DNA of 64,000 bases from Parcubacteria group bacterium (lineage in GTDB: Bacteria; Patescibacteriota; Minisyncoccia; Moranbacterales; GCA-2747515), in contig JBAZXC010000003.1 of assembly GCA_041660065.1 (NCBI GenBank), positions 1,495 to 65,494 of the forward strand, written 5' to 3'. A model generated the notes under the pieces. The model was not told the origin of the DNA and made no database searches. It saw nothing but the letters and a program-made list of their open reading frames with translations. A program made the translations under genes and the position numbers. This document shows positions 3,441 through 58,330 of the stretch, one piece after another (within the stretch, counting starts at the first letter, position 1; each line of letters begins with the position of its first letter).

Positions 3441-3448
3441 ATAAAAGT

Positions 3449-3657: not shown

Positions 3658-3667
3658 TAGTTGTTGA

Positions 3668-3757
3668 ATATTTAAAAATTTAATCAAAAAATTTTTTTGA
3701 TTAAAAATTGGATATTCCGCGATAGCTCTCCGCCAGCTGGCGGAGGTAGAGCAGTTG
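3668..3757 (+). repeat. unit 2: AT-rich palindromic leader (3668-3715) plus tRNA-Asn 5'-half copy with a 14-bp palindrome (CCGCCAGCTGGCGG) inserted in the D-loop (3716-3757)
   Basis: Near-identical to 4050-4125, the leader plus 5' half of the real tRNA, except for the D-loop insertion. It diverges after 'gagcagttg'. Confidence 0.6.
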
Positions 3758-3761
3758 CCAT

Positions 3762-4010: not shown

Positions 4011-4038
4011 CTCTCCGCCAGCTGGCGGAGGTAGAGCA
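4001..4038 (+). repeat. unit 3 fragment: tRNA-Asn 5'-half copy with the same D-loop palindrome, truncated after 'gtagagca'
   Basis: Identical to 3716-3750. It overlaps the GIY-YIG stop codon. Confidence 0.6.
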
Positions 4039-4098
4039 TAAAGATGTTGAATGTTTAAAAATTTGATCAAAAAGAGCTTTTGGTCAAAAATTGAATAT

Positions 4099-4170
4099 TC
4101 CGCGATAGCTCAGCGGTAGAGCAGTTGACTGTTAATCAATTGGTCATAGGTTCGAATCCTATTCGCGGAG
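4099..4170 (+). tRNA. tRNA-Asn (anticodon GTT)
   Basis: Manual fold: acceptor tccgcga/tcgcgga, D-arm gctc-agcggta-gagc, anticodon stem gttga/tcaat with loop ctGTTaa, T-arm atagg-ttcgaat-cctat, discriminator g. No encoded CCA. Confidence 0.85.
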
Positions 4171-9220: not shown

Positions 9221-12200
9221 ATGACAAATACCAATCGCACAAGCTCAATTAGAAGCGGTTTTGCCTACCAGAATTTCTGGGGTTTAAGGCTGTGCGGAGA
9301 ATGGTTGGCTAGTCCAGAGCAGTACAAATGGATTCAATTTGAAACATGTCCTGATGAAAAAGATCCAAATAAATTCTATTTGGACGACATTGTTTGTCTT
9401 GATTCAGATAACTTATGGCATTTGTATCAAACTAAATATAGACAGGATTGCACTAATAAGTGGACCTGGGATAATTTTTTAAATGCGGAACGGAGTGGCG
9501 GAACTTCACTTATAAGAAAATGGGCAAATTCTTTAGCTAATCGTCTCGACAAAACCAAGGCGGCATTTTTTATAACAAATGGTGATTCTGAAGATTGCAT
9601 TAGCAAATATATATACGATGAATTGCTTAATATCGAAGAAATAAAGAAAAAGGACCCCGCTCTTTATGATCGAATTGTTGTAGAAATAGGAATCGAGAAT
9701 GATGTTGATTGTATTTTTCAAACACTTCGTTTTCAATTCAATCAAGAAAATCTGTCATCTGATGAATTAGAAAAAAACATACGAAAATATTATTATGAAA
9801 AACTTAATGCGACTGAGTCCGGTGTTACTAATTTATATCATGAAATAGACAAGGAGTGCAGGCAAAAGAATACTCAACAACTAAGCATCGAGCTACTTCG
9901 TAAGTGGTGTGAATTTGATACGCCTCGGTCACTGGATGAACAGTTTGATATTCCGACTGATTTTGAATTTTTTGATGATAAAACTCATCAGTCTATCCTA
10001 AATGATCTAGGGAAAACAGAGGGCGGTATCCGAGTAATTTTTGGTAATCCAGGTGTTGGCAAGAGCGTATATTTATCAAAGCTTTCTGATGAGCTGGGTG
10101 AGAAAAAAATAATTTCAATCAAGCATCATTACCACATTTCACCAGAAGATTCTAATCCCCAAGAGCGCTTGAACGCGAAGCGAGTAATTGAGGCCATAAA
10201 GTCACAATTAAAGTCTCACAAGGAAGCTCTTGGTGATTTGGCGAATAAGGACTCAAGAAAAATACCAGTTGGAGAGTTTATTACAAAAATAGGCACGAAA
10301 CTCAATGGAAATAACAAAACTCTCGTTATAATTATTGATGGACTTGATCATGTTTTGCGCTATGGTGAAAAGGAAGAATTAGAGAGTTTTTTAAGAGAAA
10401 TATGCGTACCGCAGCCTGGAGTTTGGATAGTTATTGGTATGCAATTAATTGCTAAGTCGCATTTGCCTCAAGTGGTTTTTGATAAGTTTCCAGAGAACAA
10501 ATGGATGGAAATAAAGGGATTGAGCAAGGAAGCTGTCTCAAGGGTTATCCAAAAAAACAACATAAAGTTACATCTACCAGATCAAGCAGAGCTACTCAAG
10601 AGTTTAGTGGAAAAGTTATTTTCAATCACAGATGGTAATCCATTGCATTTGCGTTATAGTTTGCAGCAATTAAAAAATATATCTGGGAATAGTATCGTTA
10701 CGGAATATTCCTGCAACGATCTCATATCGTATGGAGATGGTATAGAAAAGTATTATGATTCTCTCTGGAATCATATTTCAGATAACGCAAAATCACTCCT
10801 GCTTACAATGGCTAGTGTTAATTTTCTTTTTACGGAGCAGCAACTTATTGAATGCATTTCTTTTTTTGTGACCGATTCTAAGGATGTAACAGATGGGTTT
10901 AATCAAATCTCACATTTAATTTCAAAAAATATACGCGGGCAGATGAGCGTATTTCATAACAGTTTCGAATTATTTTTGAGGAATCGGAAGGAAATGACAC
11001 AGCAAAAAATTGTTATAAAAACAAATATTAAGAAATGGCTGGAGCAATCTAATTATGAATATCTAAAATGGGCAGAATTAAGGATAATTGAGCATGAACT
11101 TGGAAATAGTGAACGGATTCTTGAAATAGATAGAGAGTGGCTTATAGATGCTATTTGCTATCCATGCAATACTGCTCAAATTTCTAAGCAAATGAAATTA
11201 GCTGTCAGAGTGAATCTTGAAAAAGAAGACTTTGGAGCGGCATTGCAAATTTCTTATTTGCATACTTACTATATAAATTCCAAAGATTTTGCAGAGGAGA
11301 CTCCCGAATTAATTTTCGAAGAAGCACTTTGTCTGAAGCAAAATATCTTTGAATATATTGATTTTAAATCATTACCAACAACGCTGTTTTCTGTTGTTGC
11401 AGAAATGGCAGATTCCAACGGAAATAATCTTGCAGCAGAGGAAGCTAAAGACGAGTTAATCGAGCGCTTAAGTCGGCAAGAATATCGTAAGAATGAAATT
11501 CCTCGAGTAACGGGTGTATTTCTAGATGTCATTCCTTTTGATAGAGCTCATAAATTAGTCAAAGTTTATAAATATATAGTTCAATTTAGAAATCTAGATG
11601 TAACAGGTGAATTATTTAAAATTTATTCTCGTAGACTATTGGAATTAGGTCAAAAAAACAAAGTGCTTGAGTTACTAAAACTTAAGCTCAATGATATTGA
11701 GAAGAGAGCTGTTTTAGCGGAATGTGCTGTACATGGATTTAAGAATAGGACCGAAGATTGCTCCATCTATTTTAATGAGGAACAAAATTTAACGCCACTT
11801 TGCTTGCTGTATAAATCAATAAGGAATGAGAAATTTAATCTTCCTGCTCTTCCAAAATATGATATTTTTCCTGAAACAATTCGTGAGCATGATCCCGAAG
11901 AGCGAAAAAAATGGAGTGAATTTTATTATCATAATTTTATTGTTGGATTGTTATATGGTTTTTCTGACAATAAAAAAGATATAGAAAAATGGATTGCTAA
12001 TATTCCTGATGCATGGCCAGCTAAGGCAGTAGCCGCCTTATTTGTTGCAAGTTTAAAAGTTAGTGACGGCATTAAAAACTGTAAATTTGAATATGTAGAT
12101 TTATTCAATTCATTGGTTGACTTGCAAGCTCTGAAGTGGCCCGAAGATCGGGATGTTTTAAACTTTCAGACTGCATTCAGTGACGCTATTAGCGAAATAT

Positions 12201-15200
12201 TTGAAATCGTTATTTATATTAAGGGATACATTGGAGACAATCAAGAAATTACTCTGTCTGATTATATAATGATCACTGGTAGCACAAGTTTCTTAAATGA
12301 AAATAATCTGACGGCGTTAGTTCTAAAAATATACAGGCCACTATTTTCACGTGAGGTATATGAAAAAATAAAAAATAAAAATATATACGGACTTCGTGAT
12401 ACCGTAGATCAGTTTCCCATTAGGGCTAGAGAATACGGCGTCATCTCAAAACTTGCTAGATTGTATGAAGATTTAAAATTATCAAAAGAGGTCCTGAAGA
12501 AAGCGGCGGATAATCTTCTTGGCTATGGTGACCATAAAGACGTCTATTTGTTTGATGTGCTTGAAGTAATAGAGTTTTGTGCACAAGCTGGGGTTGGTCA
12601 AGAAAAAATTAATGAATGGATTTTAAAAACTATTCCATTGATAGAAAATGTCGGAAAATATACCGATGGAGATGAAACACATGCCCTACCTATCGAACTT
12701 GCAGATGTTTTAGCTAAATATAATCCCGGGCTATTGCGTAAGTATTATTATTGGTCTGCTGATCAGGAGAATCTTTATCACGCTGAAGACTTATTTGAGT
12801 GTGTATTGACCTCTCTTGTGTTTAAAAGTGAAGAGGAGATTGCCTTAGCAAAGACTGTTGTTGAAAAAGATTCTTTTTTGAAGCTTAAAGCAACTGCAGT
12901 GAATAATCTCGGCGCCTCAGAGGCTTTGAATGACACGCAGGCTTATCTTGGTGAAATTAGTTTTCCTGAAGAAAAACAAAGTCCTTATACCGGCTCAGGC
13001 AAGCCCGTATATAACTATTCAGAGATTAATCCTGATAAATTAGTAGACCACATTAGCAATAATTTTGAGAATAAATGGGAGCGAAATAGCTATTTAGAGG
13101 GATGGTTTATTTATTGGTTGGAAAAAAATAATAAAGCCAAAATATATGACATTTTCAAAAATGTTATTGACAAATTTGGCGTTCAATCTGTATCAGGAGA
13201 GATTCTTGATATAGCATACCCTCTAGCGTATGAATTTGATAATGAAGCCGCTTTTGATATTGTATGCAAAGCTCAATCAAAGGATAATGGATGGCAAGGA
13301 TATTGGACTGACAAGAAAAAATCTGAAAAAAGATGGCAGTTTATTAAAGAAAAGTACCCGCAACGATATGTAGATTTTTTTCAGAAGAGCACTAATGGCT
13401 ATATTCCATTATCAAGAGGGGTTGAATACTTTCTTTTATTCAATGATTTAAAGCGGGCCGAAGAAATAGTGGAGGCAAGTATCCAGTTTGCAAAATCCTT
13501 GATGGCAAATAGCAATCTGCCATCGCCAGCATGGCTGGAGGAAAAAGAAATTGACGCGCTTGATATTTTAATTCAGCGATTAATTTGGCCTAGTCCATTA
13601 GTCCGAGAAAGAGCTGCCACTGCCTTAGCGAGCTTGCTTTGTTCGAGTAAGAAAAAATTGAATATCTTTAACCATCTGTTGCTCTGGCTTAAACAACAAA
13701 AGATAGAATCTGTAGCAGCAATTGGACTTCTTCCTATCATCAAAACTTTTTATATATGTAAAGACACTAAAGATTTAAAATACATCAACATTGACGATGT
13801 AGCCTCTTCAATGTCAGTAAGTTCCGAAGTTATAGAAGCATTATTTAAGGAGCTTTCAGATTTAAAAAACAAGCCAACGCCAAATTTAAAGCCCTTTAAA
13901 AATATTAAGGAATTTGGAGATGGTTATATTCCAAGTAGCTTCTTCTCTAAACATGTGCAAACATTTCTTGCACCTATTTATATGGATAGGGCAAAAAATA
14001 TTGAAAGGCGATCAGGGAAAAGCTTTATCAAACAATGGGCGTTTATTTCAGATGAGATAATAAAGGATTTAGGAATAGAGCCTAACCATGACCATGTTTA
14101 TTATTATGGTCGCAGTCAACAAGGTGAATTTTTACTTGGTTTTTCCACAAAAATAAGTGAAGTATATAGATCAGCATTTTTAAGAGCTATACAATATTTT
14201 TACCAAAATGGAGATATCGAGAAAGATTTTTATTTGGAATATGCTTATGCGACGCTGCCTATAGAATTATCCAAATGGAAAATTTTACCAAATCGTGCGC
14301 CAGAATGGTGGCCGCAGATCGCATCCAAAAGTAGGGAAGACGATAATGAAGATACTTCTTTGGAGAGTATTTCTTTTAAGAAAGCTCCGGAGGATTTGAT
14401 TAATAATCAGGATGATAAATTAATAATTGCAGCTGAGGGTGCTATCAAGCCAGATAATGGCTGGAAAAATGATCCAGAACATTCATTTAAGTTGATCGCC
14501 TTTGGCTACAGAGCTGTAGGTCCAGAAGTGCCAACCCCGGATGAGGTTTCAGATAGAATTTCTTATGCTTCTCCTGGTTTGATTACTATCCCCTCAAGAA
14601 CACACAAGCCCTTTAATTTCTTAGAAGATAAGGAAAATCATTTACCAGTTAGGCATGAGCCATTCCGAATCAAGGATATTGTAATCTATCCTATCATAGC
14701 CAGGGAACGCGATCTTTCCATTGCCCTTTGGCAATATTTCAGAGATTATAATGTACCATTCAATTTAAACCTCCCACTTTCACAAGAGCTTAAGCTCGTT
14801 TTACAAAAAAATAGCTGGCAGCTGGAGGATAAAAATGGTAAAGCTGTGGTCATGCATAGTGATTGGCTTGAGGGATTAAAGGAGAGATACAATCGAGATA
14901 TGCCCATACCGCATGGTCAGTTTCTGATAGTGGAACAAAGCTTCTTAGATGATTGCTTGGGCAAAGATATTAAGATTGGATATATGCTGAAAACTACCTA
15001 TAGGACAAGGAAGCACAGCTATGATGAGGTTGAAAAGGATAGTAAGATTAAATTAATAAATGTTATTGGTATACCCGAAAAGCCCAAGGGGTATGATTTA
15101 AATGAAATTGAAGAAAGGAACGCTGCATTAAATAAATATCTCGAAAACATTACTGATGAAGAGCTTCTGGAAAAAAGTGAAAAAGAGACAGCCCAAACCG

Positions 15201-16009
15201 AATTGGATTTTCAAGCGCTAAAAGAAGCACTTAAAAATAATAAGTGCAGCTTATGTGGTAATTCAATCTCTCAGTTCTCTGAAAAAAAGCCTTGCCTTCA
15301 TTGGCTATTGAAGCCCAATGGTTTCAAAAAAAAGCATTTTCCATTATTATTTGAAAAATATAATTTTCATAGAATGGAGGCTTATCTTCGGTGGGTGGCA
15401 AATACTGATGTGCCATTAAAAAATATAAATGATCTTGTTGAGGAAAAAACATCTTCAAAGAAAATTGAGTTAACAATTCGGTATAAAAACTTAGAATGGT
15501 CTTTTTCATGTGCAGAATCTGACTTTAGCGGACATCAAGATAGTCATGAAGGAAAAATGCCACACTATCATTTTCAAATGAAATTAGATGACAGAGTTAT
15601 TATAAATTATGGAGGTTTTCATATTCCGTTCCACGATGAGGATTTTTTTGGTTTTTCTATAAGCGAAGGAAAGATACCAAGGCTCGGCTACAAGCATATA
15701 CATGGGGCAGGGATGCAGGAATTATTAGATAACTTTTCTCCAGATGAGCTTTTGGATCAAATGATTAGGGCTGAAAACTATGATGATGCTCAATTGCACA
15801 CGTCTACTTTGGTTGAAGCAGCCCCCGGAACAACCATATCGGGCACGGATATCGCAAATCTTTATAAAGAACATAAAGAAACAGGCATACCAATGGCTAA
15901 ATTAATCAAAAAATTGCCCAATGTAAAAGCAATGAGCGTGATATCTCCTGGTCCTGGTGTGCCAGATCTGGCTAAGCGCACGTCGCGTCGTCGTAAAGGC
16001 GATAAGTAG
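9221..16009 (+). CDS. giant (2262 aa) P-loop NTPase, NACHT/STAND-like, with an N-terminal about 260-aa domain of unknown type (possible nuclease-like effector), a very long helical middle and a C-terminal Cys/His-rich domain
   Basis: Walker A 'IRVIFGNPGVGKSVYLSKL' at about aa 275. Walker B 'KTLVIIIDGLDHV' (hhhhDGLD, NACHT-like) at about aa 370. N-terminal 'SGFAYQNFWGLRLCGEWL' and 'PDEKDP...LDDIVCLDSDN...YQTKY'. C-terminal 'CSLCGNSISQFSEKKPCLHWL...HQDSHEGKMPHYHFQ'. The uninterrupted 6.8-kb ORF is preceded by an SD-like 'agagaagaaaag'. Confidence 0.8.
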   Translation: MTNTNRTSSIRSGFAYQNFWGLRLCGEWLASPEQYKWIQFETCPDEKDPNKFYLDDIVCLDSDNLWHLYQTKYRQDCTNKWTWDNFLNAERSGGTSLIRKWANSLANRLDKTKAAFFITNGDSEDCISKYIYDELLNIEEIKKKDPALYDRIVVEIGIENDVDCIFQTLRFQFNQENLSSDELEKNIRKYYYEKLNATESGVTNLYHEIDKECRQKNTQQLSIELLRKWCEFDTPRSLDEQFDIPTDFEFFDDKTHQSILNDLGKTEGGIRVIFGNPGVGKSVYLSKLSDELGEKKIISIKHHYHISPEDSNPQERLNAKRVIEAIKSQLKSHKEALGDLANKDSRKIPVGEFITKIGTKLNGNNKTLVIIIDGLDHVLRYGEKEELESFLREICVPQPGVWIVIGMQLIAKSHLPQVVFDKFPENKWMEIKGLSKEAVSRVIQKNNIKLHLPDQAELLKSLVEKLFSITDGNPLHLRYSLQQLKNISGNSIVTEYSCNDLISYGDGIEKYYDSLWNHISDNAKSLLLTMASVNFLFTEQQLIECISFFVTDSKDVTDGFNQISHLISKNIRGQMSVFHNSFELFLRNRKEMTQQKIVIKTNIKKWLEQSNYEYLKWAELRIIEHELGNSERILEIDREWLIDAICYPCNTAQISKQMKLAVRVNLEKEDFGAALQISYLHTYYINSKDFAEETPELIFEEALCLKQNIFEYIDFKSLPTTLFSVVAEMADSNGNNLAAEEAKDELIERLSRQEYRKNEIPRVTGVFLDVIPFDRAHKLVKVYKYIVQFRNLDVTGELFKIYSRRLLELGQKNKVLELLKLKLNDIEKRAVLAECAVHGFKNRTEDCSIYFNEEQNLTPLCLLYKSIRNEKFNLPALPKYDIFPETIREHDPEERKKWSEFYYHNFIVGLLYGFSDNKKDIEKWIANIPDAWPAKAVAALFVASLKVSDGIKNCKFEYVDLFNSLVDLQALKWPEDRDVLNFQTAFSDAISEIFEIVIYIKGYIGDNQEITLSDYIMITGSTSFLNENNLTALVLKIYRPLFSREVYEKIKNKNIYGLRDTVDQFPIRAREYGVISKLARLYEDLKLSKEVLKKAADNLLGYGDHKDVYLFDVLEVIEFCAQAGVGQEKINEWILKTIPLIENVGKYTDGDETHALPIELADVLAKYNPGLLRKYYYWSADQENLYHAEDLFECVLTSLVFKSEEEIALAKTVVEKDSFLKLKATAVNNLGASEALNDTQAYLGEISFPEEKQSPYTGSGKPVYNYSEINPDKLVDHISNNFENKWERNSYLEGWFIYWLEKNNKAKIYDIFKNVIDKFGVQSVSGEILDIAYPLAYEFDNEAAFDIVCKAQSKDNGWQGYWTDKKKSEKRWQFIKEKYPQRYVDFFQKSTNGYIPLSRGVEYFLLFNDLKRAEEIVEASIQFAKSLMANSNLPSPAWLEEKEIDALDILIQRLIWPSPLVRERAATALASLLCSSKKKLNIFNHLLLWLKQQKIESVAAIGLLPIIKTFYICKDTKDLKYINIDDVASSMSVSSEVIEALFKELSDLKNKPTPNLKPFKNIKEFGDGYIPSSFFSKHVQTFLAPIYMDRAKNIERRSGKSFIKQWAFISDEIIKDLGIEPNHDHVYYYGRSQQGEFLLGFSTKISEVYRSAFLRAIQYFYQNGDIEKDFYLEYAYATLPIELSKWKILPNRAPEWWPQIASKSREDDNEDTSLESISFKKAPEDLINNQDDKLIIAAEGAIKPDNGWKNDPEHSFKLIAFGYRAVGPEVPTPDEVSDRISYASPGLITIPSRTHKPFNFLEDKENHLPVRHEPFRIKDIVIYPIIARERDLSIALWQYFRDYNVPFNLNLPLSQELKLVLQKNSWQLEDKNGKAVVMHSDWLEGLKERYNRDMPIPHGQFLIVEQSFLDDCLGKDIKIGYMLKTTYRTRKHSYDEVEKDSKIKLINVIGIPEKPKGYDLNEIEERNAALNKYLENITDEELLEKSEKETAQTELDFQALKEALKNNKCSLCGNSISQFSEKKPCLHWLLKPNGFKKKHFPLLFEKYNFHRMEAYLRWVANTDVPLKNINDLVEEKTSSKKIELTIRYKNLEWSFSCAESDFSGHQDSHEGKMPHYHFQMKLDDRVIINYGGFHIPFHDEDFFGFSISEGKIPRLGYKHIHGAGMQELLDNFSPDELLDQMIRAENYDDAQLHTSTLVEAAPGTTISGTDIANLYKEHKETGIPMAKLIKKLPNVKAMSVISPGPGVPDLAKRTSRRRKGDK

Positions 16010-16087: not shown

Positions 16088-17608
16088 TTATTTTTTCAAT
16101 AAGGTTCTGACTTCTTCCATAACGTGGAGCAATTTTCCAGTTTTCTGGTAAGCAATGACCCCTGCAAAGGGGTTTTTTGTTTCAAATACTAAAATTTTTC
16201 CTTGTAACGAAAAGTTCTGAAATACGAAATTGATGAGTTGTGTTTTCTCCTCTGGTTCCGCAACTTGAAAAATCTCCCATGACTTCTGAGATAAGTCTAT
16301 AATAGTACCAGCTGTAATATAGAAGTTCTGGTTTGCTTTGCTATGATCTTCTAATTGCTCCATTAAGTCCTGTTCTTGTAATTTATAGTCATTGCAGCGC
16401 TTATCATAATCTTCAGTTGTTATACGTCCATCCAATCGATCCTCGTACATCACTTTATATCGATTTCGGATTTTACTGAGCTTATGCTCTAATGTATTTT
16501 TATTTTGTATAAAGTATTCTTGCTCTGAATCGTGAATTCGTCGCATTTCGGTAGTTAGTTTATCCAAGGATTTTTTTGTGAGTTTCATATTTTGAAACTC
16601 TTGTTTGATTTGCAAAATCAAATCTTTTTCTCGTATCCAAACAACGTTTGTGCAATTTCCATGGTAATTTGTACAATGATAGTAAATGTATTTTCCCTTC
16701 TTAATTTCTGGAGAAATTGCGCATCCACATTCTGCGCATTTTACAAGTCCCCGAAAAATGTATGGCTTGTTGGTTCGCTTGTAGTTTTGTTTGTTATATC
16801 CAGCAATGACTTTTTGAACTTTTTCAAAAAGATGTCTCGGGACGACCGTGTCATATCTATGTTTGTAAATTTTTCCATTATAAAGCATTTCCCCGTGATA
16901 GAATGAATCTTTGAGTATCTTGTGAATTTGACTGGCTGTAACTGGTTTATTGCTTGGATAATTTGTAAGACCTCTCTTATTCATTTCTTTTGCAAGTGAT
17001 TTTGCAGAATATCCGCCAGCGGCATAAAGTTCAAATGCTTTTAGAATATAGTGACTGCGCTCTTCGTCAATAACAATATCTTTTTTACCATCACTCAATG
17101 TGATATTTTTGTATCCAATGTGAGCTTTCCCAGGCAGCTCACCGTTGTTTAGTTTTTCTCGTAAACTACGCTTTACGTTATCGCCAAGTTGTAGGACATA
17201 ACTTCTTGCAAACATTACTCCCATATCCCAACGCAATAGGTCCGCGCTGTTTGAATCTTTGTTGAGAATGAGGTTTTCACGTAAAAAATGCAATTCCAAT
17301 TTTTCTTGTTTGCGAAAATCATCCAAAATAACAGATTCCTTGAAGCCTCTTTGTAAGCGATCAATGGTATCAGTGATCAATGCAATTGGTTCTTTGGATT
17401 TTTTGATGATCTCAATGATGCTGGAAAATTCGTTGCGAACATCCTTTGTTGATGATTCTGTAATCTCAAACACTTCATCAACAAGAAGATTTCTATATTC
17501 GCAATATTCTCTCATACGACGAACTTGTGATGGTATTGATTGCCCCTCTTCCATTTGCTCTTTTGTGGATACACGAGCAAGTATCAATGCTTTCATAAAT
17601 TTTTTCAT
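16088..17608 (-). CDS. large serine recombinase (second copy, different sequence from 4159-5760)
   Basis: N-terminal 'ALILARVSTKEQMEEGQSIPSQ' with the catalytic Ser context, then 'IALITDTIDRLQRGFKESV'. Zinc ribbon 'CAECGCAISPEIKKGKYIYYHCTNYHGNC'. Confidence 0.8.
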   Translation of the reverse strand: MKKFMKALILARVSTKEQMEEGQSIPSQVRRMREYCEYRNLLVDEVFEITESSTKDVRNEFSSIIEIIKKSKEPIALITDTIDRLQRGFKESVILDDFRKQEKLELHFLRENLILNKDSNSADLLRWDMGVMFARSYVLQLGDNVKRSLREKLNNGELPGKAHIGYKNITLSDGKKDIVIDEERSHYILKAFELYAAGGYSAKSLAKEMNKRGLTNYPSNKPVTASQIHKILKDSFYHGEMLYNGKIYKHRYDTVVPRHLFEKVQKVIAGYNKQNYKRTNKPYIFRGLVKCAECGCAISPEIKKGKYIYYHCTNYHGNCTNVVWIREKDLILQIKQEFQNMKLTKKSLDKLTTEMRRIHDSEQEYFIQNKNTLEHKLSKIRNRYKVMYEDRLDGRITTEDYDKRCNDYKLQEQDLMEQLEDHSKANQNFYITAGTIIDLSQKSWEIFQVAEPEEKTQLINFVFQNFSLQGKILVFETKNPFAGVIAYQKTGKLLHVMEEVRTLLKK

Positions 17609-17764: not shown

Positions 17765-18844
17765 CTATTTTATGAGCAATGCATTTCTCACTGCTTTGCC
17801 GAGTTCCTCATTTGATATGTTTATACTCAGTCCATTATTTTTCAGATTTTTCATAGCTTTTACCCGTTCAACGGCCTCAATGGGGGTTAGGGAGCCGTAG
17901 CCGTATGAGCCAAATGTTGTACCGATATGTTCATGTCCAAGTACGAGGCTGATAGCGCGCTTATCCGCTTCAGTCAATCCGAGTTCACTCATAAATGCAA
18001 CAGCGGAATGGCGAAATGAATGAGGATTGTAATAGGGAACATTTGCTTCCTTGCATCTCTCTTGTATGATTTTTCGCGCAGGGTTTGATGATTGCCAAAA
18101 TTCATCCGAGACTTTTTTGAGTGAGAAATCTTGTGTTGCTGGGAATATTGGCTTTTTGCTCCCAAAGCCCTTTTCTTCTGTAAGATAGGAATACCATTCA
18201 AGAAAAATTCTCTCACCATCATCCCAGCCAATGGGAAAAAATGTTGATATAATTTTTTTTGAGTTTTTTGTCTTGACGCCCATTGCGGGGCTCTGTTCGA
18301 TGTGGAGTTTGTGTTTGTCAAATGCTTGCATAGGTAGAGATACAACGGCACTGATGCGCATGCCTGTCAAGATGAGGAATGCAATCATTGCTCTATCGCG
18401 CAGGGCAACCTCGTGATTTCCCGAGATGCTCTGGACAATTGATTTGATTTCCTCAAGTGTTGGAATATCTTTTTCCGTTTTTTCAAGTGCGATGCTCGTT
18501 TCTTTCTTTGAAAGGCGCAGGTAGTCAAGGTCCGTTTTCTTGATTTTATCATAGAATGGTTGATCACTAAGCCATAAAAAGAAGCGTTTAGTGTGTCTGA
18601 GAATGTCATATTGATTTGAGAGTGAAGTGTTATTCTTATCAGCCTCTCGCTTGAGGTATTTTTTGAACTCATCACATAAATCCCGATCAAACTCTGCAAA
18701 ATCAGAATTTTCAAAACACACTTGCCACTTGTAGATGCACTGCGCGTATTTATTGATCGTGCTTTCTGCAAAGCCTTTTGCGCTACGACAATGATTGAAA
18801 TATTCACGTTTTGCCGCCTCATTCTTTATGATCGAATTGGTCAT
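17765..18844 (-). CDS. tyrosine-type site-specific integrase/recombinase
   Basis: C-terminal catalytic region 'HSFRHSAVAFMSELG...LVLGHEHIGTTFGSYGY' with the R..H..R..Y pattern. N-terminal SAM-like DNA-binding region. Confidence 0.85.
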   Translation of the reverse strand: MTNSIIKNEAAKREYFNHCRSAKGFAESTINKYAQCIYKWQVCFENSDFAEFDRDLCDEFKKYLKREADKNNTSLSNQYDILRHTKRFFLWLSDQPFYDKIKKTDLDYLRLSKKETSIALEKTEKDIPTLEEIKSIVQSISGNHEVALRDRAMIAFLILTGMRISAVVSLPMQAFDKHKLHIEQSPAMGVKTKNSKKIISTFFPIGWDDGERIFLEWYSYLTEEKGFGSKKPIFPATQDFSLKKVSDEFWQSSNPARKIIQERCKEANVPYYNPHSFRHSAVAFMSELGLTEADKRAISLVLGHEHIGTTFGSYGYGSLTPIEAVERVKAMKNLKNNGLSINISNEELGKAVRNALLIK

Positions 18845-21608: not shown

Positions 21609-22520
21609 GTGATGAATAATAGAAAAAATAAGAAAAAAATAGGTGAGAATTATACTTTTATAGATTTGTTTGCTGGGATAGGGGGATTTCACCAGGCTTT
21701 TCATAATATCGGAGCTGAGTGTGTGTTTTCTTCAGAATGGGATGAAAATGCCAGAAAAACGTACGAACTCAATTTCAAAAAGATTTCTCCAAATCTTTTT
21801 GAAAAAAATAAATTTATAGGGGATATAAACTCAATCAAAAACATCAAAAAGGAGATTCCTGATTTTGACATTTTGACGGGAGGATTTCCTTGCCAGCCCT
21901 TTAGTCACGCTGGACACAGAAAGGGTTTTTTGGATACCAGAGGCACTTTATTTTTCAATATAGTCGAAATATTGAGACAAAAAAAACCAAAAGCGTTTTT
22001 TATAGAAAATGTCAGGGGATTATTGAATCATGATGATGGCAATACTTTTTCAGTAATCAAAAAAACAATAGAAGAAGAACTGAACTATTCTTTTTATCCT
22101 GAGATTATTAGAGCCTCCGATTTTGGTTTGCCCCAGCATAGACCTCGTTTATTTATGGTTGGCTTCAAAAATAAAAAGATAGAATTTGAGTTTCCAGATC
22201 CAGTTGGCTTGAAAATGAACATGTCTGACATATGGGGAGGAAAATGCAGTAGAGATGTGGGATTTACTCTCAGATGCGGTGGTAGGGGGTCTGGTTTGAA
22301 TGACAGGAGAAATTGGGACACATATTTGGTTGACGGTAAAGAAAGAAGATTGTCTTCTGCGGAGGGGAAAAAAATGATGGGATTTCCGAAAGGTTTCAAA
22401 TTTCCAGTTTCTGAAACCCAAGCAATGAGGCAGCTTGGGAATGCTGTAGCTGTGCCAGCCATTCAAGCTGTTGCACAGGCAATAATTGAATCATTGAACT
22501 CTTATGATAAAAGGAAATAA
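21609..22520 (+). CDS. DNA (cytosine-5)-methyltransferase with a short target-recognition region
   Basis: Motif I 'FIDLFAGIGGFHQAF', motif IV 'GGFPCQPFSHAG', motif VI 'ENVRGLL', motif X 'RQLGNAVAVP'. Confidence 0.85.
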   Translation: MMNNRKNKKKIGENYTFIDLFAGIGGFHQAFHNIGAECVFSSEWDENARKTYELNFKKISPNLFEKNKFIGDINSIKNIKKEIPDFDILTGGFPCQPFSHAGHRKGFLDTRGTLFFNIVEILRQKKPKAFFIENVRGLLNHDDGNTFSVIKKTIEEELNYSFYPEIIRASDFGLPQHRPRLFMVGFKNKKIEFEFPDPVGLKMNMSDIWGGKCSRDVGFTLRCGGRGSGLNDRRNWDTYLVDGKERRLSSAEGKKMMGFPKGFKFPVSETQAMRQLGNAVAVPAIQAVAQAIIESLNSYDKRK

Positions 22521-23586
22521 AGGAGAATGGAGTGAATTTTATGCTTTTCTCAAAATATTGACTGATGGCAAAATGTTTACTGCAGATAAAGATCTCGAAA
22601 TATTGAGAGATAATTATTATATTGTTTTGAAAATTATTAGAGAGGAAACTAATGGGAAGAAATCTTATGATATTTCTAAGCGGGATGGCAAAGTTGTGAT
22701 TTTTGATGAAATGATGAAATTGAGTGATGTTGTTGATTTGGAAAAAATAAAAAAAAGAGTTGCGGATATTTTTGATGAAATGAGAAAAGCGAAAGGATCT
22801 ACTTTCCAGATATTACTTGCTGAAGAGGCTATGAGGGATTTGCATTGTTCCCAGATAAAAGCATCAAGCGGACGAAAGGCGGACTTAATGATTGTTTTGC
22901 ACGACAAAAAATCACCAGCCTTTCCTGAATTGGGGTTTAGCGTGAAATCCATGCTCGGATCACCATCAACACTTTTGAATGCCTCAGGGGCGACAAATTT
23001 CGTCTATAAGGTTGCTGAAAGCGGCAAGTCTGATGAAGAGCTTGATGTGTGTAACAAATCGCTTACAGTTCGAGATAGGGCCGAATTTATCTATGATGCA
23101 GGTGGCCGTTTTGAATATTGTGGGATGGACAGTGCTAAATTTAGAAAAAACCTTAGAAAGATTGATTCGAATTTTCCAGAAATAATTGCAGAAATTGTAA
23201 GGCATTACTATGGTGGCAGGGGAAATAGCATTTCTGATTTGGTTGATCATATTTCGAAGGATGTTGATTTTTGCAAAAAGCTTGATTTAGACAAAAGTGA
23301 CTTTATTTTTAAGGTAAAGAGATTTTTATCAGATGTTGCTTTGGGCATGACTCCAAGCAGAGAATGGGATGGACATGCCAGTGCACACGGTGGATACATA
23401 ATTGTAAAAGAAAATGGAGAAATAATCTGTTATCATATCTACAATCGAGACGAATTTGAGGACTATCTTTATAATAATACAAAGCTGGATACTCCAAGTA
23501 CGACACGACATAAATTTGGCGACGTTTATGATGAAAATGGAGAGAAAAAAATCAAATATAATTTGCAGATTAGATTTATAAAATAA
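22504..23586 (+). CDS. probable type II restriction endonuclease partnered with the C5-MTase
   Basis: Its start overlaps the MTase 3' end by 17 nt, and it is followed immediately by vsr. No catalytic motif was confidently identified, so the call rests on context. Confidence 0.5.
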   Translation: MIKGNKGEWSEFYAFLKILTDGKMFTADKDLEILRDNYYIVLKIIREETNGKKSYDISKRDGKVVIFDEMMKLSDVVDLEKIKKRVADIFDEMRKAKGSTFQILLAEEAMRDLHCSQIKASSGRKADLMIVLHDKKSPAFPELGFSVKSMLGSPSTLLNASGATNFVYKVAESGKSDEELDVCNKSLTVRDRAEFIYDAGGRFEYCGMDSAKFRKNLRKIDSNFPEIIAEIVRHYYGGRGNSISDLVDHISKDVDFCKKLDLDKSDFIFKVKRFLSDVALGMTPSREWDGHASAHGGYIIVKENGEIICYHIYNRDEFEDYLYNNTKLDTPSTTRHKFGDVYDENGEKKIKYNLQIRFIK

Positions 23587-23590
23587 GCAA

Positions 23591-24019
23591 ATGGTAGATA
23601 TTTTTTCAAAAGAAAAAAGGTCCGAAATAATGTCGAAAATAAGATCAAAAGAAACCAAAATGGAGGTAAAATTCAGAAAAAAACTTTGGCATTCTGGATT
23701 TCGATATCGAAAGAACGCGTCTGGTTATTTTGGAAAACCAGATATTTTACTTAAAAAATATAGAACAGTTATTTTCATCGATTCTTGTTTCTGGCATGGA
23801 TGCAAAAAACATTTCAAACTTCCTTCAACAAGACAGAAATTTTGGAGTGAAAAGATGGTACAAAACCAAAAAAGAGATAAGGACGTTACAGGTTATTATA
23901 AAAAAAATGGTTGGAAAATTATCCGAATTTGGGAGCATGATTTGAAGAGGAATTTTCAGAAATCGTTTGACAAAACTAGTTATTTATTATTGAAAGATGA
24001 AAGTGCACGAATAAAGTAA
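23591..24019 (+). CDS. vsr: very-short-patch repair endonuclease Vsr
   Basis: 'FRYRKNASGYFGKPDILLKKYRTVIFIDSCFWHGC' is the Vsr signature, including the FxDGCFWHG-like block. Confidence 0.8.
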   Translation: MVDIFSKEKRSEIMSKIRSKETKMEVKFRKKLWHSGFRYRKNASGYFGKPDILLKKYRTVIFIDSCFWHGCKKHFKLPSTRQKFWSEKMVQNQKRDKDVTGYYKKNGWKIIRIWEHDLKRNFQKSFDKTSYLLLKDESARIK

Positions 24020-24108: not shown

Positions 24109-24606
24109 ATGGCTACAAAATACTTAAGGGCTATCGAGGTGGCGGAGTATTTTATCGCAAGAGCGTGTAAGGAAGGGGATGAAATGACGCCAAAAAAATT
24201 ACAAAAGATGCTTTATTATGCTCAAGCGTGGTTTTTGGTTTTTGAAAACAGGAGGCTTTTTGATGACAAAATAGAGGCGTGGATGCATGGACCGGCGATC
24301 TACTCCATTTATCAAGAGTATAAGATGTTCGGTTTTTTTCCAATTAGAAAGGAAATTGATAAGGATTTTTTGGATAAAATATCAGATAATACGAAGAGGT
24401 TTTTATCGGATATTTGGAAAGTGTATGGAAAATATGATGCTGATTATTTAGAAATCTTATCACATAACGAAAAACCTTGGCGTGTTGCACGCGCTGGAGT
24501 TGGCGAGTTCAATGCTTCAAAAAATGAGATTGATACAAAATTGATGAAAAGTTTTTATAAAGAACTGCTTGCTAAAACAACGGATGATGTCCAAGAATCG
24601 AAATAA
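24109..24606 (+). CDS. Panacea-domain (DUF4065, SocA/PanA-like) putative antitoxin
   Basis: 'KLQKMLYYAQAWFLVFENRRLFDDKIEAWMHGPAIYSIYQEY' matches the DUF4065 core pattern. Confidence 0.65.
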   Translation: MATKYLRAIEVAEYFIARACKEGDEMTPKKLQKMLYYAQAWFLVFENRRLFDDKIEAWMHGPAIYSIYQEYKMFGFFPIRKEIDKDFLDKISDNTKRFLSDIWKVYGKYDADYLEILSHNEKPWRVARAGVGEFNASKNEIDTKLMKSFYKELLAKTTDDVQESK

Positions 24607-25124: not shown

Positions 25125-27119
25125 ATGCCAATAACTCAAAGTCAAACATTCTATGTAAAAAAAATATATCTGAAAAATTTTAAGAAATTCAGTAATGCTG
25201 AAATTGATTTTGGGGCTGGACTTAATTTCTTGATAGGTCCGAACAACGCTGGAAAAAGTACAATTCTTCAAGCTGTGGATATTGTTGTGGGGGATACGTG
25301 GCTTTCTGAGGATATGCTTGACCATTCTTTTTTTTATGAAGAGGAGAATAACTTTGTTGTTTGTGTGGAAATTGCCTTTCCAAACATCGGTTGTTCATCT
25401 AATAGAAACAGAATAAACTTCATTAGAAATCTGAAGCTTGCAAAAGGCAATGTTCGATCAATGGTGTATGGACAATTTTCAAATGCCACACCTCGAGAAT
25501 TTCTTGATGGAGATGAAATAGATAGCATAACAGATGTAGTTGGGGAGGATATAAATATTGAGTCCGTACATTTCTTTACTGTTGCTAAAAGAGAAGATGG
25601 TAGTCTGAGTGTTGAAAATTTCGTCGTACTTAATTTGTGTGAGCCAGTTTATAAAAATGATGGCAACTATACATCCATTCAAATTTCATTGACCAAGTGG
25701 GTGAGGAGTAATCTGATTTCATTTTTGTTTATACCAGCTGCCAGATCTGAAAATCGACAAATATTTCAAGTGGCACAACACACGTGGCTTGGCAAATATT
25801 TGAAAATTCTACAAAAAGAAAAAAATAGTGAAGTCGAAAGTTATTTTGATCAATGTCATTTGCAATCATTTCCATTGGAATTTGATAATTCTGTAAAAGA
25901 TATTCTCAAGGATCTCTTTGGTGATATAAGTGAATTGTCACTTCACACCTTTGATCATGAGCATTGTGACTCATTGTATAAATACGCTCATGTTTTTTTA
26001 TCTGATCCTTTTCTTGCTGAAATTGATAAGAAGGGTCACGGTATCCAATCTGCGAGTGCTATAGCATTGTTTTTGGGCTTTCTTGAACGAGAGGCTCTCA
26101 ATCATCCAGAATATAGCACATCTCGGAGTGGATCCGCTCCATCACACTGGGCTACGATTTTACAGATAGAAGAGCCTGAATCACACTTTCATCCTCCAGC
26201 GCGAATAAAGCTCGTATCTATTCTTAAACAGAAATTTGCTGACTCTGGGGCGCAAGTAATTGTTTCGACGCATGATGAGGGATTTGTTAAGTGGCCTTTT
26301 ATGAATGGCTCAAATTTGATATTCCCAGGTGCGATTGATCCAGACGGAAAGATCAAATCTATACTATTTCATGATGGATCGACAGATAGCACTATGGAAA
26401 TAAACTCTCGTATATTACGGTTTCAAGCGTCAACAATTTTTTCACAAAGAGTGTTGATAGTTGAGGGGTGCGAGGCGGTGTGTCTAAATGCTATTTTCAT
26501 GAGATTATTGAATGAAGACTTAGAATCTAATGCAATTACAATGGCTCAATCAGTATCTTCGCAACCAAGAACTGATCACGGAGATAGTGGCAATTTACAG
26601 CCAGCTGGTGGCGCATCTCAAATACCTGATACAGTTCAATTATATAAGCAATTGGGAATAAAAAGTGCATGTCTGATTGATATCGATTGTTTATTCAATG
26701 GTTCGATTGGAAGAATTATTGAGTCATTTGGTGGGGTACCAAGGGCTTTCATTTTTGATGAGGTGCTTACACAAGAAGAGGTGAGAGGGGGTAGTGGGAT
26801 GGTATCAGCTCAGGATATGAGAAGTATTATAGCGGCTAGCCCAGATAAAGAGCGTAGATTTAGTGATTTAGTCGAACGATTATCAAATATTGGAATTTTT
26901 GTATATAACAAAGGTGATTTTGAAGGAAATTTTACGGATAGATTTGTGAATAATTATATTAGTCGGAACAATAAAATTATTAAGGAGGCATTGTGCTATG
27001 CTATAAAAAGTAAAGCGGAAATGAGTAATACATTTGATGTGGATTGTTTGCAAAGTAATGCAAGGCAAGATTTAGAACAAGCTTTGGCATGCATAAAAGC
27101 TTTCTTTAGCACTGACTGA
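25125..27119 (+). CDS. OLD-family nuclease (N-terminal ABC-type ATPase plus C-terminal TOPRIM), class-1/GajA-like
   Basis: Walker A 'LIGPNNAGKSTILQA', Walker B/H-loop 'ILQIEEPESHFHP...VIVSTHDEGFV', TOPRIM 'RVLIVEGCEAVCLNAIF' and DxD 'ACLIDIDC'. Confidence 0.7.
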   Translation: MPITQSQTFYVKKIYLKNFKKFSNAEIDFGAGLNFLIGPNNAGKSTILQAVDIVVGDTWLSEDMLDHSFFYEEENNFVVCVEIAFPNIGCSSNRNRINFIRNLKLAKGNVRSMVYGQFSNATPREFLDGDEIDSITDVVGEDINIESVHFFTVAKREDGSLSVENFVVLNLCEPVYKNDGNYTSIQISLTKWVRSNLISFLFIPAARSENRQIFQVAQHTWLGKYLKILQKEKNSEVESYFDQCHLQSFPLEFDNSVKDILKDLFGDISELSLHTFDHEHCDSLYKYAHVFLSDPFLAEIDKKGHGIQSASAIALFLGFLEREALNHPEYSTSRSGSAPSHWATILQIEEPESHFHPPARIKLVSILKQKFADSGAQVIVSTHDEGFVKWPFMNGSNLIFPGAIDPDGKIKSILFHDGSTDSTMEINSRILRFQASTIFSQRVLIVEGCEAVCLNAIFMRLLNEDLESNAITMAQSVSSQPRTDHGDSGNLQPAGGASQIPDTVQLYKQLGIKSACLIDIDCLFNGSIGRIIESFGGVPRAFIFDEVLTQEEVRGGSGMVSAQDMRSIIAASPDKERRFSDLVERLSNIGIFVYNKGDFEGNFTDRFVNNYISRNNKIIKEALCYAIKSKAEMSNTFDVDCLQSNARQDLEQALACIKAFFSTD

Positions 27120-56602: not shown

Positions 56603-56694
56603 TAGAAAATATCAAAATTATAATGTTCATTATAAATAAATCTTTATAATAAGCCATTATTTATCAAATTAGTCATAAATAATGTCACAAATAT

Positions 56695-56723
56695 TGACAT
56701 TTGATGCATTTTTGCTATGCTGG
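56695..56723 (+). promoter_or_regulatory. sigma-70-like promoter (TTGACA ... TATGCT)
   Basis: ttgaca at 56695-56700, 16-nt spacer, tatgct. Confidence 0.4.
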
Positions 56724-56727
56724 CACT

Positions 56728-57471
56728 ATGGAAAAGTTACAAAACACTCTCATAAGTTATGGACTGAGCACTAATGAGGCTAAAGTGTATTTGGCCATGG
56801 TGAATTTTGGGCACAGCACGATCGTGACTATCGCCAAGGAAACGGAGGTCAAAAGACCGACGGTGTATTTAACGATCGAAAGTCTGATAAAAAAAGAATT
56901 GATCAAAACGATCATCAAGGGAAAGAAAAAATATTATCTGCCGGAAGAACCGGAGAGACTATTGCGCATATTGGAATCAAAGAAGCGATCGATCGAAAAT
57001 ATCTTGCCGGACCTTAAAAACAACTATTTTAATAAGAGTGAAAAACCAAAGGTCGTTTCCTATGAAGGGAAGGATGGCATCAGAAAGATCTACGAAGAAA
57101 CAATCCGCAGTAAAACAGAGGTTCTTTGGTTTGGGTCGATGAAAGACGTCATGGAGGAATTTCGAGAGAGCTACAACAAAATTTGTCAGGAAGAATCTGC
57201 GTATTCAAAAGGTTCCAGGGAAATCGTCAACAACACCTCCTTTGATAGGAATTATGCCAAAAGGACAAACGACCGGAAAAATTCTAAATTCAGTGTCCGC
57301 GTCTTGCCCAATGCGCATCTTTTTTCCAGTGTGGATAATATTATTTATGATAATAAAGTGGCTATTCTATCGATCAAAAAAAATTATTATGGCGTAATCA
57401 TAGAGGACAGTGACATCGCAAATGCCTATCGGACGATGTTTGAACTGGCGTGGAAATCGGCTGTGAAATAA
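56728..57471 (+). CDS. TrmB-family transcriptional regulator
   Basis: N-terminal wHTH 'LISYGLSTNEAKVYLAMVNFGHSTIVTIAKETEVKRPTVYLTIESLIKKELI'. Confidence 0.55.
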   Translation: MEKLQNTLISYGLSTNEAKVYLAMVNFGHSTIVTIAKETEVKRPTVYLTIESLIKKELIKTIIKGKKKYYLPEEPERLLRILESKKRSIENILPDLKNNYFNKSEKPKVVSYEGKDGIRKIYEETIRSKTEVLWFGSMKDVMEEFRESYNKICQEESAYSKGSREIVNNTSFDRNYAKRTNDRKNSKFSVRVLPNAHLFSSVDNIIYDNKVAILSIKKNYYGVIIEDSDIANAYRTMFELAWKSAVK

Positions 57472-57500: not shown

Positions 57501-57618
57501 TGTCATTGCGGGGAATCCCGATGATAGTCAGGATTGACTGTGGCAATCTTCTTATGTTGTGAGCTAGTTGTAATGTTGTGAGATTGCTTCACTGCATTGC
57601 ATTTCGCTCGCAATGACA
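57501..57618. repeat. MITE-like element 1: 10-bp perfect terminal inverted repeats tgtcattgcg / cgcaatgaca with internal direct repeats (atgttgtgag x2)
   Basis: Seen directly. The internal palindrome gggaatccc is also present. Confidence 0.4.
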
Positions 57619-57680
57619 GAATTTTTATAGTTTTAATGAGAAGGGGTATATTTTGTTTAAATTGAAAAAAATCAATCAGT

Positions 57681-57844
57681 ATGTCATTCCCGCGGAGGCG
57701 GGAATCCATGGAAACTGTAAAGTTATCGGAAACCTGTGGATCCCCGGGTCAAGCCCGAGCCTGCCTGCCCTGCCTACCGGCAGGCAGGCGGTAGGCAGGG
57801 GCAGGGATGACAGGGGATAGATTCCCGCCTCCGCGGGAATGACA
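57681..57844. repeat. MITE-like element 2: 24-bp perfect terminal inverted repeats (gtcattcccgcggaggcgggaatc) flanking a strongly GC-rich palindromic core
   Basis: Arms at 57683-57706 and 57820-57843. The core is cctgcctgccctgcctaccggcaggcaggcggtaggcagg. GC content is far above the surrounding AT-rich DNA. Confidence 0.5.
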
Positions 57845-57958
57845 ATTGGGGATGGTAGGATATGAACTCTCTTAATAGTTGTCGGCATTGATTGATCGAT
57901 GACTATCGTAGTATAATAAGTAATAGAGAGAATAATCAAATAATAGCAATATGCGCAT

Positions 57959-58330
57959 ATGGCAAAAAAAATATTGATCATCGAGGACGAAGCATCACTT
58001 CGCATGGCGTTGGAAGAAAAATTTAATGGGGAAGGCTTTGCTGTCCTTACGGCGGATAATGGTGAGGATGGCTTGGTACTTGCACAACAACATATACCAG
58101 ATCTGATCCTCTTGGATATTATTTTGCCAAAAATGAACGGATTTGATGTGTTGAGCCGTTTGGCAAAGGATGATGCAACAAAAGAAATCGATGTTATGAT
58201 CCTGACAAATCTGAGTGAGACGGGCAAGGTGGGAGAGATCGTGCGCAAAGGCGTATCCGAATATCTCGTGAAAGCGGATTGGACTTTGGAAGAAATTTCT
58301 GAGAAAGTGAGAAACAAGTTGGCTGACTGA
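57959..58330 (+). CDS. single-domain response regulator (CheY-like receiver)
   Basis: 'KKILIIEDEASLRMALEE...DLILLDIILPKMNGFDVL...KADW'. Confidence 0.8.
   Translation: MAKKILIIEDEASLRMALEEKFNGEGFAVLTADNGEDGLVLAQQHIPDLILLDIILPKMNGFDVLSRLAKDDATKEIDVMILTNLSETGKVGEIVRKGVSEYLVKADWTLEEISEKVRNKLAD

Follow-up and report, generated by a model that had tools for sequence, protein, structure and literature searches.

A mosaic cluster of dRS3/NTS/SRM-like hairpin repeats in an intergenic spacer of a Parcubacteria genome

Introduction

The question raised by this locus is what kind of sequence occupies positions 57501–57844 of a 64,000-nucleotide stretch of DNA from a Parcubacteria group bacterium (GenBank assembly GCA_041660065.1, contig JBAZXC010000003.1, positions 1,495 to 65,494 of the forward strand; hereafter the window, to which all coordinates refer unless another contig is named). 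These 344 bp carry two adjacent inverted-repeat structures, Element 1 (57501–57618, 118 bp) and Element 2 (57682–57844, 163 bp), and lie in a 487-bp spacer between the gene of a TrmB-like regulator (stop at 57471) and that of a stand-alone receiver-domain protein (response regulator, RR). An initial annotation, which was made from the letters of the sequence, interpreted them as miniature inverted-repeat transposable elements (MITEs) or as a horizontally acquired structured RNA. Here, we found that the cluster is a known kind of repeat, an array of the Neisseria Transformation Sequence (NTS)/Ssn-related motif (SRM) type with NIME- or BIME-like organization, rather than a novel RNA gene or mobile element. 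It is probably a mosaic array of hairpins of the dRS3/NTS/SRM super-family residing in a Parcubacteria genome.

Structure of the repeat cluster

The inverted repeats of both elements were confirmed. The terminal inverted repeats (TIRs) of Element 1 consist of TGTCATTGCG at 57501–57510 and its complement at 57609–57618 (10 bp perfect, 13 nt at 92%). The arms of Element 2 (57682–57709 and 57817–57844) are complementary over 28 nt at 96%, including 24 perfect nt, both fold on themselves as hairpins and GC-only palindromes are enclosed between them. The 24-mer arm occurs at two sites in the 64 kb, both of them here, and shuffled sequences gave an expectation of 0.00. When folded as single-stranded DNA (ssDNA), Element 2 reached -64.5 kcal/mol, which corresponds to z = -11.4 versus shuffled sequence. 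The local GC content peaks at 0.62–0.67 against a window background of about 0.39, and thus the GC contrast with the flanks that had been noted initially is real. The 10-mer of Element 1 taken alone is at chance level (6 matches with at most one mismatch versus 5.07 expected), and the arms of this element fold weakly (z of -2.3 for the left arm). The significance of Element 1 derives from its right arm, since this arm retains all 26 positions (26/26) of a recurrent 26-nt repeat, the canonical GTCATTGCGAGCGAAGCGAAGCAATC.

The 344-bp stretch can be resolved into five modules, which follow each other in the order B-like(+), B(-), A(+), C(-) with a nested GC palindrome, and A(-). The left arm of Element 1 (57502–57548, plus strand) was recognized by a hairpin finder as a decayed hairpin of the form GTC-ATTGC-[33-nt loop]-GCAAT-C. 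Just the terminal GTCATTGCG and GCAATC remain of class B in this arm, the alignment with the canonical repeat is gappy, and the loop includes GGGGAATCCC, a stretch similar to the 3' half of class A hairpins. An imperfect direct repeat (15 nt at 87%, 19-nt period) sits between the two hairpins of Element 1, with TTCTTATGTTGTGAG at 57549–57563 and TTGTAATGTTGTGAG at 57568–57582. The right arm of Element 1 (57582–57617, minus strand) is the class B hairpin GTCATTGCGAGCGAA[ATGCAATGCAGT]GAAGCAATC, the loop of which carries a 10-nt insertion.

Element 2 starts with a class A hairpin on the plus strand (57682–57709; TGTCATTCCCGCGGAGGCGGGAATCCAT), which has an 8-bp stem and a folding energy of -9.5 kcal/mol. 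An AT-richer spacer of 28 nt (57710–57737) separates it from a class C hairpin on the minus strand (57738–57811), which reads GTCATC|CTCGGGCTTGACCCGGGGATCC on that strand and the 5' stem of which is split by a 46-nt insertion. Without the insert, this hairpin matches 26 of the 27 canonical positions. The insertion itself is a nested GC-only palindromic module (57760–57805) with a 20-nt core, CCTGCCTACCGGCAGGCAGG, at 57769–57788. The right arm of Element 2 is again a class A hairpin (57817–57844, minus strand; TGTCATTCCCGCGGAGGCGGGAATCTAT) and it is convergent with the left arm so that the GTCAT ends point outward. Judged by their appearance, the identical arms of Element 2 look recent or maintained and those of Element 1 look like decaying relics.

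Copies of the hairpins in other genomes

Classes A, B and C, which are each spread over tens to hundreds of unrelated contigs, share the frame [C/T]GTCAT-stem-loop-stem-ATC, and the TGTCATT motif at the ends of both elements, which had already been noticed in the initial annotation, can be regarded as a real family signature. Scanning of IMG/VR yielded class A (GTCATTCCCGC-N4-GCGGGAATC) in at least 120 viral-contig stretches, class B in 111, where 116 of the 122 copies were identical with the canonical 26-mer, and class C (GTCATCCTCGGG-N5-CCCGAGGATC) in 46. Even the rare class A subvariant ending in ...ATCYAT, which is carried here, was present at no fewer than 120 metagenome loci. These mostly belong to contigs of low GC content (median 0.44, lower quartile 0.40), so that recent transfer cannot be deduced from GC-richness. 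The high GC content is intrinsic to the hairpins, and the proposal of a recent horizontal acquisition that had been based on it is not sustained.

When we compared both elements by BLAST with about 4.4 Mb of fetched loci bearing such hairpins (hereafter the fetched loci), only hairpin modules of 24–32 nt gave matches. The interiors and flanks of the elements had no copy in the fetched loci, and this includes the direct repeat of Element 1 and the 28-nt spacer of Element 2, which is unique. Both open reading frames (ORFs) across Element 2 lacked a true homologue in protein collections of 5.8 billion clusters and 1.84 billion representatives. Searching for target-site duplications (TSDs) as direct repeats of 2–12 bp at any tested boundary of Element 1 and Element 2 revealed none. 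Because the interiors have no copies in the loci and collections searched and the elements no TSD, the sequence comparisons indicate that the repeated unit is the hairpin of about 26–28 nt and not the 118-bp or 163-bp element. A BLAST search of plasmids with Element 2 gave one marginal 33-nt match and was uninformative. The lone peptide match, P0169 (181 aa), is a spurious translation of tandem class A hairpins (…WIPAFAGMT…SFPRRRESM…HSRAGGNP…VIPAQAGI…) and illustrates how such repeats pollute protein databases.

The arrangement of the modules also has counterparts elsewhere. An uninterrupted A(+)-10 nt-C(-) configuration, which reads GGATCCCCGGGTCAAGCCCGAG|GATGACA, was found in contig L314. 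The 20-nt palindrome core caps other hairpins of the family in metagenome contigs L323, L370, L368 and, twice, L393, and in viral contigs 12 stretches (host GC 0.33–0.70) hold 14 copies of it, either free-standing or in apical position. Class A pairs face outward in a ratio of 15:1 at viral loci and of 23:2 at metagenome loci (combined 38:3), and for adjacent class C pairs this ratio was 13:5. The spacers within convergent pairs elsewhere vary between 11 and 349 nt in length and show no sequence relationship; the longest of them enclose a GIY-YIG gene. Among the 120 metagenome loci listed, 34 are mixed-class mosaics with more than one stem type and eight are dense clusters with three or more perfect hairpins in 400 nt. 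Long class A arrays of uniform orientation with a regular spacing of about 45–155 nt were observed in L019 (13 copies in 1.4 kb), L090, L092 and L337, and they recall the NIME arrays of Neisseria.

In the source genome, about 74 kb (the window plus 9.9 kb of contig L426) contain four clear hairpins, all of them in this one spacer, as compared with about 1.4 chance matches per shuffle. GC-rich perfect palindromes cluster at two places in the same 74 kb, namely in the 57.5-kb spacer and in an array of tRNA fragments and GIY-YIG genes that is described below.

These data bear directly on the possibility that the 118-bp and 163-bp units are true MITEs, which are moved as a whole by a transposase that is encoded elsewhere and recognizes the TIRs. 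With MITEs such as the Correia elements (CREE) the two elements share small size, lack of coding capacity, TIRs and an intergenic, promoter-proximal location. The strong outward bias of hairpin pairs in other contigs, the IS-like appearance of hairpin-GIY-YIG-hairpin units (L103; likewise PMC11893778) and the nested insertion in hairpin C, which implies some insertion activity, also speak for mobility. However, TSDs were absent at every choice of boundary, neither a conserved interior nor multiple full-length copies were found in the window, in the fetched loci or, at the peptide level, in the protein collections, and the spacers of convergent pairs elsewhere differ in length and sequence. Each apparent TIR is an autonomous, complete hairpin repeat that mostly occurs solo. 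A Pfam sweep of the 58 window ORFs detected no DDE, Y1_Tnp, TnpB or IS110-type transposase. Thus, whole-unit transposition appears unlikely to us. Of the mobile-repeat idea put forward in the initial annotation, the part that survives is that the ends belong to widely spread repeat families, whereas MITE units of 118 bp and 163 bp are unsupported. Its statement that the window holds no transposase is correct for the DDE, Y1, TnpB and IS110 types but overlooks the relevant enzyme class, GIY-YIG nucleases, one of which is encoded at 3762–4010.

Comparison with the NTS, SRM and NIME repeats

The repeats that most closely resemble the cluster have been described in Neisseria. dRS3 is defined as ATTCCC-N8-GGGAAT (Chenal et al. 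2025, PMC11893778). The NTS is the 28-nt sequence CGTCATTCCCGCGMAVGCGGGAATCYRG, which was searched with at most one mismatch, and the SRM follows the pattern HGTCWYN(0-2)YYVSBRHN(0-5)WNVSBRGN(0-2)RNCYNB (PMC11893778). The NTS is bound and cut by SsnA, a 94-aa single-domain GIY-YIG nuclease with the catalytic residues Y6, Y17 and E64, which acts on ssDNA alone and on the forward strand alone, cuts a few nt 5' of the motif and is inactive on RNA (PMC11893778). The GTC 5' of the palindrome, the C directly 3' of it and the palindrome sequence are reported to be critical for SsnA, and the identity of the loop to be dispensable (PMC11893778). That study accepts proteins as family members at an E-value below 1e-10 against SsnA (NMB0047/NMV_0044). 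SRMs are further marked by spatial association with a single-domain GIY-YIG (ssn) gene of the cd10448 type and by enrichment in the host genome over shuffled sequence. Parcubacteria (candidate phyla radiation, CPR) go unmentioned as hosts in that study.

Both arms of Element 2 contain an exact dRS3 (57686–57705 and 57821–57840, 115 bp apart). When aligned with the NTS, they agree at 25 of 28 positions, and the three that differ are position 1, the first base of the loop and the final base. The bases critical for SsnA, GTC-ATTCCCGC....GCGGGAAT-C, are intact in both arms. Thus, the arms share with the published motifs the whole dRS3 palindrome, the 5' GTC, the 3' C and the capacity to form ssDNA hairpins. 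They differ by the loop-initial G, which both published patterns exclude. In addition, no cognate gene adjoins the cluster, a single cluster in 74 kb stands against hundreds of copies, and the host is represented by a Parcubacteria metagenome-assembled genome (MAG). The class C hairpin satisfies the SRM pattern without its insert, but it does not match with the 46 nt in place.

NIMEs are dRS3-RS-dRS3 units, in which inverted dRS3 20-mers flank an RS element of 19–214 bp, and they were reported in 2007 as unobserved outside Neisseria (PMC1797815). With its inverted dRS3 sequences around a 115-bp interior, which is within the size range of RS, Element 2 resembles such a unit, and the same holds for the GC peak-and-trough profile, the intergenic location and the mosaic composition. 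In contrast to NIMEs, Element 2 is a lone unit in a non-Neisseria host and not part of a long array, and its interior does not belong to a repeated RS family but is made of other hairpin modules.

GIY-YIG partner enzymes

GIY-YIG ORFs adjoin class A hairpins at three viral loci (L103, L043, L004) and at 11 of the 120 metagenome loci listed, and at nine of these 11 a hairpin is located 13–63 nt from the domain. In L103, the GIY-YIG ORF has a hairpin on either side, at a distance of 14 nt upstream and 7 nt downstream. Several of the GIY-YIG-bearing metagenome contigs have a GC content of 0.39–0.43. The hairpin-linked proteins are about 95 aa long and, when compared by published residue positions, their invariant Y7, Y18 and E65 parallel Y6, Y17 and E64 of SsnA. 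The family is very large, with members in Omnitrophota, Planctomycetota, Cyanobacteria and Proteobacteria and with one in 'Candidatus Pacebacteria', which belongs to the CPR.

The window carries its own single-domain GIY-YIG nuclease gene (3762–4010, plus strand; 82 aa, PF01541 at 68 bits). The protein shares 41% identity with a hairpin-flanked Ssn-type protein, without the C-terminal extension, and its gene, 53 kb from the cluster, is bracketed by a different palindrome, CTCCGCCAGCTGGCGGAG, for which no exact match was found in IMG/VR. The 82-aa protein can be considered a candidate relative of the partner enzyme.

Several observations weigh against assignment of the cluster to the dRS3/NTS/SRM super-family. 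With three substitutions, both arms of Element 2 miss the NTS rule of at most one mismatch, the class A arms miss the SRM pattern at one base (the first loop base, G), and class B lies outside that pattern. A second cluster of such hairpins was sought in the about 74 kb of the genome and none was found. The comparison with N. meningitidis SsnA was made by residue positions, and a sequence search of the PDB for an SsnA structure gave weak UPF0213 matches only. A gene for an Ssn-type protein of about 95 aa with the C-terminal extension was not found in these 74 kb, and the GIY-YIG protein of the window is of a shorter subtype. Finally, a profile search of the surroundings of class B or C hairpins (1.4 Mb) detected no GIY-YIG gene, and thus the nuclease link for Element 1 and for the inner hairpin of Element 2 is by analogy only.

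The surroundings of the window's GIY-YIG gene deserve a separate description. A tRNA-Asn(GTT) gene (4099–4171) is preceded by stacked hairpin-GIY-YIG-hairpin cassettes (3358–4172). Two copies (3711–3757 and 3997–4042) of about 20 nt from upstream of this tRNA gene plus its first 13 nt or so bracket the intact GIY-YIG gene, the last five codons of which fall in the repeat. In each copy, a 16-nt palindrome (TCCGCC-AGC-TGGCGGA) surrounds the AGC of the D-loop and is followed by GGTAGAGCA. An upstream, more decayed unit consists of the palindrome CCCCGAC-GTTGT-GTCGGGG (3388–3406) and a frameshifted GIY-YIG remnant (3451–3657). The array looks like a tiny GIY-YIG cassette that repeatedly duplicated the 5' half of the tRNA, and it may be more novel than the hairpin cluster at 57.5 kb.

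Genomic context and a possible RNA function

The TrmB-like gene upstream of the cluster extends from 56704 to 57471 on the plus strand (255 aa, with the start taken from the Logan gene call, ATG 56704), and no intrinsic terminator was found between this gene and the cluster. A sigma70-like promoter of the RR gene (57888–57917, plus strand; TTGATT-18-TATAAT) follows 44 nt downstream of the cluster, and the RR gene itself (57959–58330) is followed by a convergent histidine kinase (HK) gene. Among GTDB species representatives, the adjacent HK had paralogue-level matches of 23–28% only and no close relative. HK orthologues with 71, 66, 58 and 49% identity could be compared together with their neighbourhoods (four groups). 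Here, we found that the HK-RR pair is conserved in relatives and that the gene upstream of RR differs from lineage to lineage. The orthologous RR-upstream spacers are short (74–116 bp), AT-rich and free of hairpins, and the TAGTATAAT -10 box of the RR promoter is the sole feature that they share with the spacer of the window. In about 160 kb of orthologous loci no family hairpins beyond chance were present and a profile search detected no Ssn-type GIY-YIG gene. When the 344 bp are subtracted from the spacer of the window, 143 bp remain, which is near the orthologous length. These data support a repeat-derived origin of the region rather than a conserved regulatory region of the RR gene, which the initial annotation had named, together with single-copy occurrence, as what would speak against its own proposal.

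The very stable predicted structure and the location between a terminator-less gene and the next promoter would fit a non-coding, structured RNA or cis-regulation of the RR or TrmB-like gene (small RNA, stabilizer of the 3' untranslated region, terminator). REP/BIME-type repeats stabilize upstream mRNAs. Moreover, the expressed Francisella small RNA FtrB (Rfam RF02748; PMC3091763), which is encoded in a low-GC genome, contains the class A hairpin GTCATTCCCGCGTAGGCGGGAATC. Rfam searches at permissive and gathering thresholds, however, reached no family and returned sub-threshold miRNA and FtrB noise only: the best score was 26 bits versus a gathering threshold of 94, and FtrB scored 19 and 17 bits at the two arms versus 66. 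These weak FtrB matches arise because FtrB includes the class A hairpin, and the similarity is confined to this hairpin. The structured RNA of the initial annotation is therefore not backed by any Rfam family at threshold. The cluster carries no terminator-like T-run and is missing from all four groups of orthologous spacers, its sequence is symmetric so that both strands fold equally, as DNA palindromes would, and SsnA does not act on RNA (PMC11893778). An RNA or cis-regulatory function is thus improbable. Most likely the cluster has no dedicated regulatory role, and at most it serves as a stable 3' structure or an insulator between two genes. A role as terminator was rejected for lack of a T-run, and a reading as CRISPR or tandem repeat because the geometry is inverted and not direct.

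Two side observations concern the TrmB-like gene. At least four TrmB-like paralogues are encoded in about 12 kb (window 56694–57471, L001 6418–9274, L426 4619–9681). Furthermore, in the gene upstream of the cluster a gap of only about 6 nt separates a promoter-like site (TTGACA-17-TATGCT) from the in-frame ATG at 56728 that follows it, and this gene may be leaderless.

Comparison with REP repeats and other recombinase targets

Another explanation would be an array of the REP (repetitive extragenic palindrome)/BIME type with a RAYT (IS200/IS605-like Y1 transposase) as its enzyme, or a target array of an IS110-type recombinase. REP, BIME and REPIN repeats follow the same logic of short extragenic hairpins, oriented inverted doublets, arrays, multi-class mosaics and an enzyme gene between its own repeats (PMC11893778), and in Neisseria a phage recombinase is known to use dRS3 for integration (PMC1797815). 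The enzyme associated here is a GIY-YIG nuclease and not a Y1 HUH transposase: neither a Y1_Tnp (RAYT) nor an IS110-family protein is encoded among the 58 window ORFs, and the genes that adjoin class A hairpins elsewhere are of the GIY-YIG type. The 5' signature is also different, since REPs typically carry a GTAG motif and GTCAT is conserved at the 5' side of the hairpins described here. We therefore consider this explanation very unlikely.

Assembly of the locus

An independent Logan assembly (SRR18595301) of the same organism reproduces both sides of the cluster. The left contig covers 46249 to about 57785 and includes Element 1 followed by arm A and hairpin C. The right contig starts at 57818 with arm A(-), and about 32 nt of the palindrome centre are unbridged. 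No 31-mer is repeated locally and therefore the palindrome or low coverage best explains the break. Although this break falls inside Element 2 (about 57785/57818), a chimeric join of two contigs via a shared repeat is very unlikely. Each contig shows its half along with the neighbouring genes, the inverted arm on the right contig matches the left one, and a break due to the palindrome or to coverage is the simpler cause in the absence of a local 31-mer repeat. In relatives, too, the flanking HK/RR and RimK/ABC genes adjoin. Logan contigs end at both repeat clusters, at about 4117 in the tRNA-fragment array and at about 57785/57818 here (L427, L428, L001). Small indels between L428 and the window, for instance in the length of a poly-A near 57670, suggest strain-level variation.

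Other features of the window

A mobile and defence island lies directly downstream of tRNA-Asn (4159–29000). It encodes two large serine recombinases (4159–5760 and 16088–17608), an AAA_25 protein (6018–7073), a NACHT/STAND-like protein of 2262 aa (9221–16009), a tyrosine integrase (17765–18844), an HpaII-type restriction-modification (R-M) system with Vsr (21609–24019), a SocA/Panacea antitoxin (24109–24606) and an OLD-family AAA_15+TOPRIM nuclease (25125–27119). CCGG, the site of HpaII-type R-M systems, occurs in the centre of the nested palindrome (ACCGGC) and in class C (CCCCGGG), and the matching R-M gene region of the same window is located at 21609–23586. This overlap is probably a coincidence of GC-rich palindromes.

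Discussion

If the cluster is indeed an array of the dRS3/NTS/SRM super-family, its function may be envisaged along the lines established for SsnA by Chenal et al. 2025. During replication, DNA uptake or repair, when the DNA becomes single-stranded, every intact hairpin would fold. An Ssn-family GIY-YIG nuclease would then bind the stem together with the 3' C of the forward strand and would introduce a nick a few nt to the 5' side of GTC. In the case of the convergent pair of Element 2, the cut position of SsnA predicts nicks just beyond each end, on opposite strands. Such sites might modulate recombination of incoming ssDNA, and they might multiply via a route that is tied to hairpin-ssn-hairpin units.

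A more far-reaching interpretation would be that the hairpin doublets are REPIN-like mobile units with activity in CPR bacteria and with Ssn-type GIY-YIG nucleases as their servicing enzymes. According to this scenario, the outward bias of 38:3 would put the predicted Ssn nicks on opposite strands directly beyond the two ends of a doublet, and the 46-nt palindrome in the class C stem would be an insertion caught in the act and the hairpins would target one another. We regard such an activity as rather unlikely. If it were true, GIY-YIG nucleases would drive an uncharacterized ssDNA-based transposition or copy mechanism, and the tRNA-Asn GIY-YIG cassettes at 3.4–4.1 kb would be a second manifestation of it in the same genome.

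Assignment to the dRS3/NTS/SRM super-family gives the locus a concrete identity in place of the speculative MITE or acquired-RNA interpretation, at a time when the Ssn partner enzymes have been characterized only in 2025. For practical purposes, clusters of this kind break short-read assemblies and yield spurious ORFs (e.g., MSFPRRRES..., VIPAEAGIH). Only four points go beyond the literature, namely the outward-pair rule, the insertion nested in a hairpin, the existence of classes that the SRM pattern does not cover, and the host from the CPR. Class B (GTCATTGCGAGCGAAGCGAAGCAATC) and the GC palindrome (CCTGCCTACCGGCAGGCAGG) have the same architecture as the published repeats but fall outside the SRM pattern, and the outward-pair rule and the nested insertion provide quantitative clues to how the repeats spread. 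For the family as a whole, it can be seen that hairpins of the dRS3/NTS type and adjacent Ssn-type genes for proteins of about 95 aa are abundant in low-GC metagenomic contigs, and their occurrence in a Parcubacteria MAG adds a lineage outside the published survey.

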